Below, one piece after another: positions 12,001-15,000 of a DNA stretch of 24,458 nucleotides. The position numbers are program-made. The DNA is from a virus (lineage: Duplodnaviria; Heunggongvirae; Uroviricota; Caudoviricetes): IMG/VR virus record IMGVR_UViG_2534681662_000014, positions 1 to 24,458 of that record; one strand, 5' to 3'. How positions within the stretch are numbered: position 1 is the first letter of the stretch; every line of letters begins with the position of its first letter.

Positions 12001-15000
12001 CCGCTGGGTGTTGTCTGTTGTGCGTCGGGATCTCGGTTTTGATGATAGTCACGTTGTGACAATGCCGGAACTGTGCTGGTGGCTGATTCGTAATGACCTG
12101 GCGGATGCCTTACCGGAAAGTGCAGCCCGTAAGGCACTGAGATTATCAAAGCCTGTTGTGCCGTCTGTCACCCGGGAAAGTGACCTTGTGCCTTCGGTTC
12201 CTGCCACCAGCATCATCCAGGATAAGGCGAAAAAGGTGCTGGCGCTGAAAGTGGATCCGGAGTCGCCGGAGTCTTTTATGTTACGCCCAAAACGTCGCCG
12301 CTGGGTTAATGAAAAGTACACGCGCTGGGTTAAGACACAGCCGTGTGCATGTTGTGGAAAGCCTGCTGATGATCCCCACCACCTGATAGGTCACGGTCAG
12401 GGTGGAATGGGTACAAAAGCGCATGACCTCTTTGTGTTGCCTTTGTGCAGAAAGCATCACGACGAGCTGCATGCGGATACCGTGGCATTTGAAGAGAAGT
12501 ATGGCTCCCAACTGGAGCTGATATTTCGTTTTATCGATCGCGCGCTGGCGATTGGTGTGTTGGCCTGATTTGGTGGAGAAAGTTGATGCGTGATATTCAG
12601 ATGGTTCTGGAGCGTTGGGGGGCATGGGCGGCTAATAATCATGAAGATGTGACCTGGTCGTCCATTGCCGCTGGTTTTAAGGGATTAATTCCTTCAAAAG
12701 TAAGATCTCGTCCGCAATGCTGTGACGATGACGCGATGATCATTTGTGAATGTATGGCTCGCCTGAGAAAAAACAACAGCGATTTACATGATTTATTGGT
12801 GGACTATTATGTTGGCGGCATGACTTTTATGGCGCTTGCACGTAAGCATGGGCGATCTGATTGTTGGGTTGGCAGGATGCTCCAGAAAGCTGAGGGCGTA
12901 GTGGAGGGCATGCTGATGGTATTGGATCTCCGATTGGAGATGGATGCTGATTGTTCGAAATAATTAAAGGAAAAGTTGCTGTCTGATTCTCATTAGTCTA
13001 ACATTTTAAATGTTGGAATCGCAACGTAGTTATTATCATATAACAGCTTGTTTCCTGATTTAGCCAGCCTCCCCAAAGGCTGGTTTTTTTCTAATAAGTA
13101 TTATTTCGGGTAGGGATTTTATTGTTTAACCCATAATAATTCATTGACATTGAATCCCAACTTTTGAGCGGTTCGCACATAGTCTGCTTTTACTTTATCT
13201 GGAATAGTTGGGGTCCTTGCCAGAATCCATAGGTATTCTCTGTTCGGACCACTGACAAGAGCATACTTATACTCATCATCCAGTTTGATTACATTATAGC
13301 CACCATAGAAGGGGCCAAAAAACGAAACCTTCAACGCTGCAGTTTTAGTATCTCCAGTAAAGTATGCTTTACCTTCGCTCTCGCTCCATTTATTTTTCGT
13401 TGGATCGTATCCACGGTTAAGTACACGAATCCCTCCGTCGTTCCGTTTTCCATAAGTAGCGCTGACCTGTTCCAGACCACGTTCGAACCGGTTCTCGAGG
13501 CGAGCTATTTCATACCATTTTCCGAGGTAGCGGTTGGCGTCAAAATTTGTAATCGGCTGCACACCTTTAGGTGGTGTCGGGGCCTTACATGCTATAAGAG
13601 TGAAAGAGAGTGCAATGCCAGTCAACACAGGCCATAACTTCATAATAAATCCTGTACTTTTGATAGTTGAAAGTAAGTATGAAAGATAGATGATTACGAC
13701 CGATCACTTAAAGAACTTTCATACTATATTAGGAATAGTCCATAACAGAAAAATTGTCAGTGATGACGCCAGAAAGGCAATTTATTCCGTGCACTACACA
13801 GTTTATCTGTTAATGAATTAGTCAAGGGGGAGGATATGATAAAAAAACCTGTGATTGGAATCAGCGGTTGTTTGGCCGGTTCTGCTGTTCGTTTTGATGG
13901 TGGTCACAAAAGAGCTGACTTTTTAATGGACAAATTAGTGGAATGGGTAACATTCAGACCAGTATGTCCGGAAATGGCTATAGGGCTGCCAGTTCCGCGT
14001 CCTGCTCTACGTCTTGTGCGCTCGACGCAAGGAAATATACGGATGTGTTTCAGCCACGACCAGAATGAGGATGTGACAGAGAGAATGACAGAGTTTAGTC
14101 GTTCTTATATGGACAAATTAAAGGATGTATCGGGGTTTGTGGTTTGTGCTAAATCTCCCAGCTGTGGCATGGAGCGCGTGCGTGTCTATGATGAAAATGG
14201 TAATCGAGGTCGTAAAGATGGAGTGGGACTATTTACGAGCACTTTGATGGAAAAGTTTTCCTGGCTACCGGTTGAAGAGGATGGGCGATTACATGATCCA
14301 GTGCTTCGTGAGAATTTTGTTGAAAGAGTTTTTGCTTTGCATGAACTCAATCACCTTTACAAGGAGAGATTATCAAGAAGAGAGTTATTAGCTTTTCATA
14401 GTCGTTATAAGCTTCAGTTGTTGGCGCATAGTCAGGCAGGCTATAAAGATATGGGACCATTTGTGGCTGCAATACACGAGTGGGCGGACCTTGAATCATA
14501 CTTTGAGGTGTATCGTGATAAGCTGATGGCGATTCTCAGAAAACCTGCATCACGTAAAAATCACACGAATGTACTGATGCATATACAGGGGTATTTTAGT
14601 AACTACTTAAGTACACGCCAGCGTAAAGAGTTGAGCGAGGTTATACTTAACTATCGTTCTGGCACATTGCCTCTTCTTGCGCCGTTGACTCTGCTGAAGC
14701 ATTATCTGGGTGAGTATCCTAATGATTACTTGCTTACACAGAATTACTTCGATCCCTATCCGGAAGAACTGGCTTTAAGGCTGATGGTGAATTAACTGTA
14801 TGCGATATCATCTGAAAGTGATGAGTTCCTGCATGCAGGATATTTACAATCGTAAAAACTACACTATGATACCCATAGTGTCAGTTTGTATAAAAATCCT
14901 GTTCACGCTGAAGAAAATATTGAGATGCAATTTAATGTTGGTAAATATACCAGCCCCAAAATATTTTATTCAATCTGTTTTTATATAAAGATATTTCAAG

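Follow-up and report, generated by a model that had tools for sequence, protein, structure and literature searches.

RudS is a [4Fe-4S] desulfidase that erases 4-thiouridine (s4U) from tRNA, with a TudS domain responsible for catalysis and a DUF1722 domain that binds the tRNA (Jamontas 2024, NAR, PMC11417400). A phage orthologue assayed in the same study, RudS_vir of Escherichia phage 1H12 (NC_049947, H3V29_gp66), reduced the s4U content of tRNA when overexpressed in Escherichia coli (PMC11417400). The lipocalin gene blc has in turn been listed among the morons of more than half of 19 gut lambda isolates (Mathieu 2020, PMC6969025). Genes of both kinds are divergently arranged on the stretch of prophage DNA analyzed here, the 24,458 nucleotides of the IMG/VR virus record IMGVR_UViG_2534681662_000014 (positions 1 to 24,458, hereafter the window), which encodes a Blc-like lipocalin lipoprotein (blc) and a DUF523-DUF1722 fusion (rudS). 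We consider it probable that the two genes belong to a three-gene moron cassette that was taken over as a block from a chromosomal blc-rudS locus of an enterobacterium, that its RudS erases s4U and that it is expressed in the lysogen. In the window, the cassette and its immediate surroundings comprise the following features.

12583-12963, + strand: late-gene antiterminator Q (Pfam Phage_antitermQ, E = 1e-50), with the cassette directly downstream.
13062-13095, + strand: intrinsic terminator just after Q, a stem-loop (AGCCAGCC..GGCTGG) followed by a T run.
13119-13643, - strand: blc, Blc-like outer-membrane lipocalin lipoprotein of 174 amino acids (aa), matching Lipocalin_2 and the Blc model.
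13644-13835: divergent, AT-rich intergenic region of 192 bp (34% GC) between blc and rudS.
13676-13725: perfect inverted repeat of 10 bp with a 30-nt loop, AGTATGAAAG at 13676-13685 and CTTTCATACT at 13716-13725.
13836-14795, + strand: rudS, fusion of a TudS (2-thiouracil desulfurase, formerly DUF523) and a DUF1722 domain, 319 aa, with two Pfam domains.
14843-14870, + strand: promoter-like site TTTACA-16-TATGAT, a 10/12 consensus match and the best sigma-70-like site in the region.
15198-15215, + strand: remnant of a YdeO/GadX/PatE-like AraC regulator, its first six codons (MPYICS), truncated by IS1.

The two open reading frames and the 192-bp divergent spacer lie exactly where a preliminary description of the window had placed them, and its assignments to the lipocalin, DUF523 and DUF1722 families are all supported by profile searches against Pfam and NCBIfam. 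The N-terminus of the fusion is matched by the full-length profile PF04463 (E = 3.1e-40, residues 7-149 on profile positions 1-141 of 141) and the C-terminus by the full-length DUF1722 profile PF08349 (E = 1.9e-40, residues 192-309 on positions 1-117 of 117). It contains the three cysteines Cys12 (ISGCLAGS), Cys44 (RPVCPEMA, the CPE motif) and Cys110 (SPSCGMER), which are the cluster ligands in RudS_vir and RudS_ST (Table 1, PMC11417400). The alignment to RudS_vir covers 319/319 residues without a gap at 93% identity, corresponding to 23 substitutions. Judged by domains, ligands and this alignment, the TudS-DUF1722 fusion in the window is RudS, and its putative activity, taken from the closely identical RudS_vir, is the desulfuration of s4U in tRNA. 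Phage 1H12, one of the phages that match the window, also carries the identical cassette of Q, blc (gp65), rudS (gp66), an AraC-like gene (gp67) and holin; unlike in 1H12, the prophage around the cassette is truncated in the window and IS1 interrupts the third gene.

Each half of RudS has a stand-alone counterpart. TudS, a stand-alone DUF523 desulfidase of thiouracil and 4-thiouridine monophosphate (s4UMP; PDB 6z92), shares the catalytic domain, the three cysteine ligands and the CPE motif, but unlike the RudS of the window it has no DUF1722, and its substrates are free bases or nucleotides. By sequence, 6z92 is the only solved relative of RudS, with a weak pairwise match (E = 2e-4, residues 6-66). 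YbgA of E. coli is a stand-alone DUF1722 protein, encoded upstream of the photolyase gene phr, that lacks the catalytic TudS domain and behaved as the empty vector in the assay (PMC11417400). The RefSeq name 'YbgA family protein' is thus a loose one for the fusion, which scores 190.5 bits against NF007549, below the cutoff of 237, matches it at residues 160-315 only and has the extra catalytic domain.

The product of blc matches Lipocalin_2 (PF08212) with E = 7e-44 in the Pfam profile search and the NCBIfam model NF007786 'outer membrane lipoprotein Blc' with 316.1 bits over residues 1-174, above the cutoff of 267. It is 97% identical to gp65 of phage 1H12. Its signal peptide, read from the sequence as MKLWPVLTGIALSFTLIAC-K, contains the lipobox L-I-A-C with Cys19 and is followed by Lys at +2, which is no inner-membrane retention residue. 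Under the Lol rule, the +2 residue decides on the sorting of lipoproteins to the outer membrane, and the protein would by this rule be sorted there. With E. coli Blc (PDB 1qwd, 2aco, 3mbt) it shares the Lipocalin_2 fold, the lipobox cysteine and the GxW motif, at 63.9% identity over 155 aa to the structure 3mbt. Unlike core E. coli Blc, whose gene adjoins ampC, the lipocalin of the window is a second, divergent paralogue that is phage-borne and linked to rudS. E. coli Blc binds lysophospholipid or fatty acid and its expression depends on RpoS; by homology, lysophospholipids or fatty acids are also the likely ligands of the lipocalin in the window.

The position of the two genes places them in a lambdoid moron cassette in the slot between Q and the lysis genes, the same slot that is used for stx in Stx phages. 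The intact layout, seen in the relatives L002, L003 and L075 of our comparison set, is Q, terminator, blc (-), rudS (+), AraC-like gene (+), holin and lysis genes. The pair follows directly after Q and the terminator in every locus inspected, and Q lies upstream in 25/25 of the matches listed for E. coli genomes, where it is annotated as 'antiterminator Q family protein' in all matches listed. The terminator itself scores as strong in the terminator scan (9 pairs, 5 of them GC, then TTTTTTT) and, judged from its position as in lambda, may be tR'-like. Besides its position between Q with its terminator and holin, the cassette has a deviant base composition and putative promoters of its own. Its G + C content (GC) is 0.398 at 12964-15217 compared with 0.488 in the rest of the prophage, and both genes are lower than the flanking phage genes, in agreement with the preliminary description: blc has a GC of 0.440 and a third-codon-position GC (GC3) of 0.406, rudS of 0.434 and 0.397, respectively, and the genes for Q, DUF968 and KilA-N lie at 0.47-0.55 for both GC and GC3. 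Lambda itself lacks the cassette, consistent with its dispensability for the phage cycle, as presumably does the Qin prophage of K-12.

The cassette is widespread. At a threshold of at least 80% coverage, 1047 of 5426 complete E. coli genomes (~19%; 1043 genomes with a longer query) contain the blc-rudS segment, nearly always on the chromosome, and about 100 further E. coli genomes have partial matches, some of them truncated remnants. Twelve sequenced phages carry the pair, 11 of which are gut lambda-like isolates. Among 80 viral contigs from IMG/VR, 79 could be assessed for blc upstream of rudS; the pair is present in all 79, each with Q upstream, and the AraC-like gene downstream is complete in 61 of them, present in part in 12 and missing from 4, with 2 contigs that could not be assessed for it. 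The pair had been regarded as unusual on a prophage; it is instead one of the most frequent cargo cassettes in lambdoid phages of E. coli, and blc is a known moron (PMC6969025). The description of E. coli as lacking RudS (PMC11417400) likewise fails for about one strain in five, since that many of the complete genomes carry the phage-type pair. In PHROGs, the corresponding families 2809, 3275 and 1450 are all listed with 'unknown function'. We rejected a reading as an anti-phage defence system, as neither the Blc-like protein nor RudS nor the AraC-like protein has a PADLOC match at E <= 0.01. Two short contigs (L056 and L061; JARKOR010000151.1 and JARKOR010000135.1) binned into a metagenome-assembled genome of 'Candidatus Nanosynbacter' also carry the cassette, with 93-100% identity for rudS and 99% for blc; these are almost certainly E. 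coli prophage contamination of the bin.

Chromosomal RudS proteins of Enterobacteriaceae, among them that of the E. cloacae locus and STM1389/ORF319 of Salmonella LT2 (RudS_ST), have the same two-domain architecture. Among the proteins retrieved, which came from Citrobacter, Enterobacter, Klebsiella, Leclercia, Pectobacterium, Serratia and Salmonella (other than LT2), identity to the protein in the window is 66-77%; almost all of those listed are 319 aa long. A Blc-like gene (69-82% identity, mostly 78-82%) is found upstream of rudS, on the opposite strand, in 42 of the 62 chromosomal loci compared, which come from different species. Citrobacter sedlakii has the two genes side by side with a gap of 187 bp, in a non-mobile context flanked by a betT-like transporter gene and by rluF, lysC and pgi. 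In Enterobacter and Leclercia, a MerR/MlrA-like regulator gene and a transthyretin-like gene lie between lipocalin and rudS, and the rudS of Citrobacter braakii is the last gene of a cluster of MerR, SnoaL, SDR, amine oxidase, DUF1365, CMAS (cyclopropane-fatty-acid-synthase-like), DUF2878 and DUF3833 genes. Since the same pairing is found in these chromosomal loci, the association of lipocalin and rudS predates the phage, which argues for its capture as a block; the co-occurrence of the two genes also supports the earlier proposal that they were acquired together, horizontally and as one module. The chromosomal rudS genes have 47-62% GC and are accompanied by a MerR-type regulator (Enterobacter) or a MerR-headed cluster (C. 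braakii), whereas phage rudS has 43% GC and, in place of MerR, the AraC-like gene, which in the neighbourhoods compared is found at phage-type loci and not at chromosomal ones.

Two side observations concern the chromosomal relatives. The transthyretin-like gene is a consistent member of the unit in Enterobacter and Leclercia, exemplified by Enterobacter bugandensis (L068, 5021-7960) with the order lipocalin (-), MerR/MlrA-like (+), transthyretin-like or hydroxyisourate-hydrolase-like (+) and rudS (+). In Salmonella enterica serovar Derby (L070 and L071), a 74%-identical rudS without blc lies beside ttcA (tRNA 2-thiocytidine synthase) and is followed by a phage DUF1367 gene; ttcA is the Rac attachment region in E. 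coli, and the locus looks like another prophage-remnant context.

The third gene of the cassette encodes an AraC-like protein of 237-243 aa on the + strand in intact relatives, and in the window the homology to intact cassettes stops at 15215. The intact gene of L002 codes for 237 aa with HTH_18/HTH_AraC domains and has YdeO as its best NCBIfam match, below the cutoff. PatE of O157 Sakai is 48% identical to this protein over the full length. PatE, PsrA and PsrB are prophage-encoded AraC-like activators of acid resistance in enterohaemorrhagic E. coli, of which the cassette gene is a distinct paralogue; we rejected its identification with PatE itself on account of this identity and of the Sakai prophage Sp1, which carries PatE without blc or rudS. 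Between rudS and the AraC-like gene lies a very AT-rich leader of 420 bp (14796-15217), in which a perfect palindromic hairpin at 14861-14881 overlaps the promoter-like site at 14843-14870 and scores as a terminator on both strands.

From these data, we propose the following course of events. The divergent Blc-like/rudS locus of an enterobacterial chromosome would have been captured as a block and placed into the slot between Q and lysis genes. In the lysogen, blc and rudS would each be expressed from a promoter of its own, both lysogen-phase promoters presumably lying in the 192-bp spacer and pointing in opposite directions. At the inner leaflet of the outer membrane, the lipocalin would bind lysophospholipids or fatty acids. 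In RudS, a [4Fe-4S] cluster would be ligated by Cys12, Cys44 and Cys110, with one iron left free to bind the thiouridine sulfur, so that the TudS domain could hydrolyse s4U to uridine while DUF1722 holds the tRNA, and s4U at position 8 (s4U8) of host tRNA would decrease. As s4U8 is the near-ultraviolet (near-UV) chromophore whose crosslink to C13 leads to growth delay under ultraviolet A (UVA) and to the stringent response, less s4U8 would mean weaker near-UV crosslinking, a weaker stringent response and a shorter growth delay. In this vein, RudS_KT diminished the UVA growth delay, and the E. cloacae rudS locus, which has the Enterobacter layout with the MerR/MlrA-like and transthyretin-like genes, was linked by the RudS authors to UVA-induced loss of s4U (PMC11417400). 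The cassette may hence have a role in tolerance to UVA or photo-oxidative stress. The lipocalin would act on membrane lipids in the same stress context, as the conserved linkage alone suggests; a literature search for a link of lipocalins to LitR light regulons gave nothing usable, and a photo-oxidative role of the lipocalin would therefore be read from genomic linkage only. By their layout, rudS and the regulator appear co-oriented with Q-dependent late transcription and blc antisense to it, so that upon induction the Q-antiterminated late transcript would read through rudS in sense and through blc in antisense. The third gene, for the PatE-like AraC regulator, is destroyed by IS1 in the window.

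Several points weigh against this proposal. Of the RudS proteins assayed, RudS_vir showed the lowest activity on tRNA although it was well expressed (PMC11417400), so that its natural substrate in E. coli may be a different one. A MerR-type regulator goes with rudS on chromosomes but is missing from the phage cassette, for which regulation by light can thus not be assumed, and the promoters are weak matches to the consensus: the single promoter-like site on the + strand of the spacer is TTGAAA-16-GATGAT at 13667-13694. A fitness benefit and expression in natural lysogens are predicted from the orthologue and the layout. As to the donor, our search found none; the best chromosomal identities are 77% for RudS (Citrobacter) and 82% for Blc (Enterobacter/Leclercia), and the GC of the cassette genes (0.43-0.44) is far below that of the sampled chromosomal homologues (0.47-0.62). 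Both the identities and the higher chromosomal GC imply that the actual donor lies outside the sampled genomes.

A different benefit would result if the cassette served the phage during induction. With rudS in sense orientation in the Q-dependent late transcript, prophage induction by UV or the SOS response would then flood the cell with RudS, which would strip the near-UV sensor from host tRNA and thereby spare late phage protein synthesis from the translation arrest due to the crosslink and from the stringent response, with the lipocalin handling photo-oxidised lipids, and a light-stress module of the host would have been hijacked for the burst. We regard this idea as unlikely.

Slightly less likely in our estimate is that RudS detoxifies or salvages free thiolated nucleobases or nucleotides (2- or 4-thiouracil, s4UMP) and not tRNA, which comes close to the 'nucleobase detoxification' of the preliminary description. 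The catalytic domain is the TudS domain, and of the RudS proteins tested, RudS_vir had the shortest lag on 4-thiouracil together with a comparatively low desulfidation of tRNA (PMC11417400). Its rescue of a uracil auxotroph on 4-thiouracil was, however, delayed and weak and did not occur on 2-thiouracil; no RudS, RudS_vir included, supported growth like TudS, and none allowed growth on 2-thiouracil (PMC11417400). All tested RudS proteins lowered s4U in tRNA, and DUF1722 is the tRNA-binding module (PMC11417400). The idea of thiolated nucleobases thus pointed in the right direction, but it is superseded by the identification of the fusion as RudS, an eraser of tRNA s4U whose phage orthologue has been assayed (PMC11417400); the established substrate is tRNA.

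The inverted repeat in the spacer could be the operator of a dimeric regulator, either the AraC-like protein of the cassette or a host factor, that co-regulates both promoters. A repeat had been described before and is present, although with arms of 10 bp and not 9 bp, at 13676-13685 and 13716-13725. A perfect inverted repeat of at least 10 bp with a loop of 3-60 nt was reached in 1.3-1.5% of 2000 shuffles of the spacer (p ~0.014), the left arm falls into the spacer of the sole +-strand promoter-like site, and the right arm overlaps a possible TATAGT on the - strand, as read from the sequence. The intergenic region is also well conserved, with a length of 192 bp in 79/79 assessable viral contigs and a mean column identity of 96% among the E. 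coli and phage variants compared with 90-93% for the coding regions. In an alignment of five E. coli/phage variants and two Citrobacter loci, however, only two positions in the repeat arms are polymorphic, each of which breaks a pair and neither of which is compensated; the repeat has one mismatch in L076 and two in L075 and 1H12, which form one lineage, and among the viral contigs one mismatch occurs in 17/79. The spacers of the two Citrobacter loci show no similarity to that of the window and are not alignable with it, so that the repeat has no counterpart in these chromosomal spacers. Furthermore, the binding sites of AraC-family proteins are typically direct repeats or of greater length. 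As both arm polymorphisms break pairs without compensation, the inverted repeat is probably not a conserved operator, and we rejected it as such; it is probably a lineage-specific, fortuitous feature, and an operator function appears improbable to us.

It is still less probable that the lipocalin works directly for the phage as an outer-membrane lipoprotein of the Cor or Llp kind, excluding superinfection or masking a receptor, with rudS as a passenger. Membrane proteins predominate among lambda morons (Mathieu 2020, PMC6969025), and blc is transcribed against the late operon, as a gene expressed in the lysogen would be. Yet PADLOC gave no match for the three cassette proteins, and the lipocalin is a Blc paralogue of full length with 78-82% identity to most chromosomal copies, which are linked to rudS in non-mobile contexts. 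This closeness to rudS-linked chromosomal copies argues for a retained ancestral function and a functional link to rudS. Finally, that blc and rudS are two independent morons in chance juxtaposition, for which it speaks that the slot after Q is a hot spot gathering unrelated genes, is refuted by the co-occurrence data, with the same divergent pairing in 42/62 chromosomal loci of other genera and, always with the 192-bp spacer, in 79/79 viral contigs, and has next to no probability left.

Our preferred reading is therefore that of a chromosomal blc-rudS block captured as a lambdoid moron cassette. The prophage that carries it in the window is inserted at thrW next to proA, as seen from the window and the comparison with E. 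coli genomes. Its genes follow the order integrase, early genes, cI-like repressor, KilA-N gene, DUF968 gene and Q. The remaining features of the window are listed below.

1-1254: proA.
1369-1444: tRNA-Thr(CGU) gene thrW.
1459-2622, - strand: tyrosine integrase.
15218-15980, + strand: IS1-family insertion sequence (Pfam InsA and DDE_Tnp_IS1).
15275-15547: insA, within the IS1-family element.
15574-15966: insB, within the IS1-family element.
15981-24458: plasmid-like part, with IS66 fragments.
16180-16782: ProQ/FinO-like gene, in the plasmid-like part.
19425-23315, - strand: SPATE (Peptidase_S6) autotransporter of 1296 aa.
23354-24265, - strand: F4/K88-type fimbrial subunit.

The same thrW attachment site is used by O157 Sakai Sp1 / CP-933H, of which Sp1 is the PatE-bearing prophage without blc or rudS. 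The prophage in the window lacks lysis and structural genes, but blc and rudS are intact. The best chromosomal match, NZ_CP115186 (E. coli MY203L1), has the identical IS1 insertion, after which the remainder of the regulator gene continues, and its identity to the window stops exactly at 15980, the right end of IS1. In MY203L1 the cassette lies in a Qin-like prophage beside rspB and not at thrW, which indicates that the block of Q, cassette and IS1 is mosaic between prophages. To the right of IS1, positions 15981-24458 (8.5 kb) are at least 99% identical to E. coli plasmids of 130-140 kb. Since none of the complete E. coli genomes spans the junction 15980/15981, and none covers more than 52% of the window, the junction reflects either an IS1-mediated integration of plasmid DNA (or a deletion) or a mis-join of the assembly at IS1. 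In sister prophages, the variable slot upstream of hokD holds differing defence-like cargo, namely a HEPN-domain protein in L001 (9985-10917) and an ABC-three-component system in L002 (6610-9154).

Taken as a whole, the feature is an ordinary and largely known one: blc is a listed moron, the phage orthologue of RudS has been assayed and the pair is annotated in many genomes. What our analysis adds is its prevalence in ~19% of complete E. coli genomes, the ancestral chromosomal pairing and the replacement, in the cassette, of the MerR-type regulator found on chromosomes by an AraC regulator that resembles PatE. A prophage-borne rudS at this frequency is relevant when UVA responses or the s4U content of tRNA are compared among natural isolates, and the ancestral linkage of lipocalin and rudS points to a possible part for the lipocalin in the stress response in which RudS acts.

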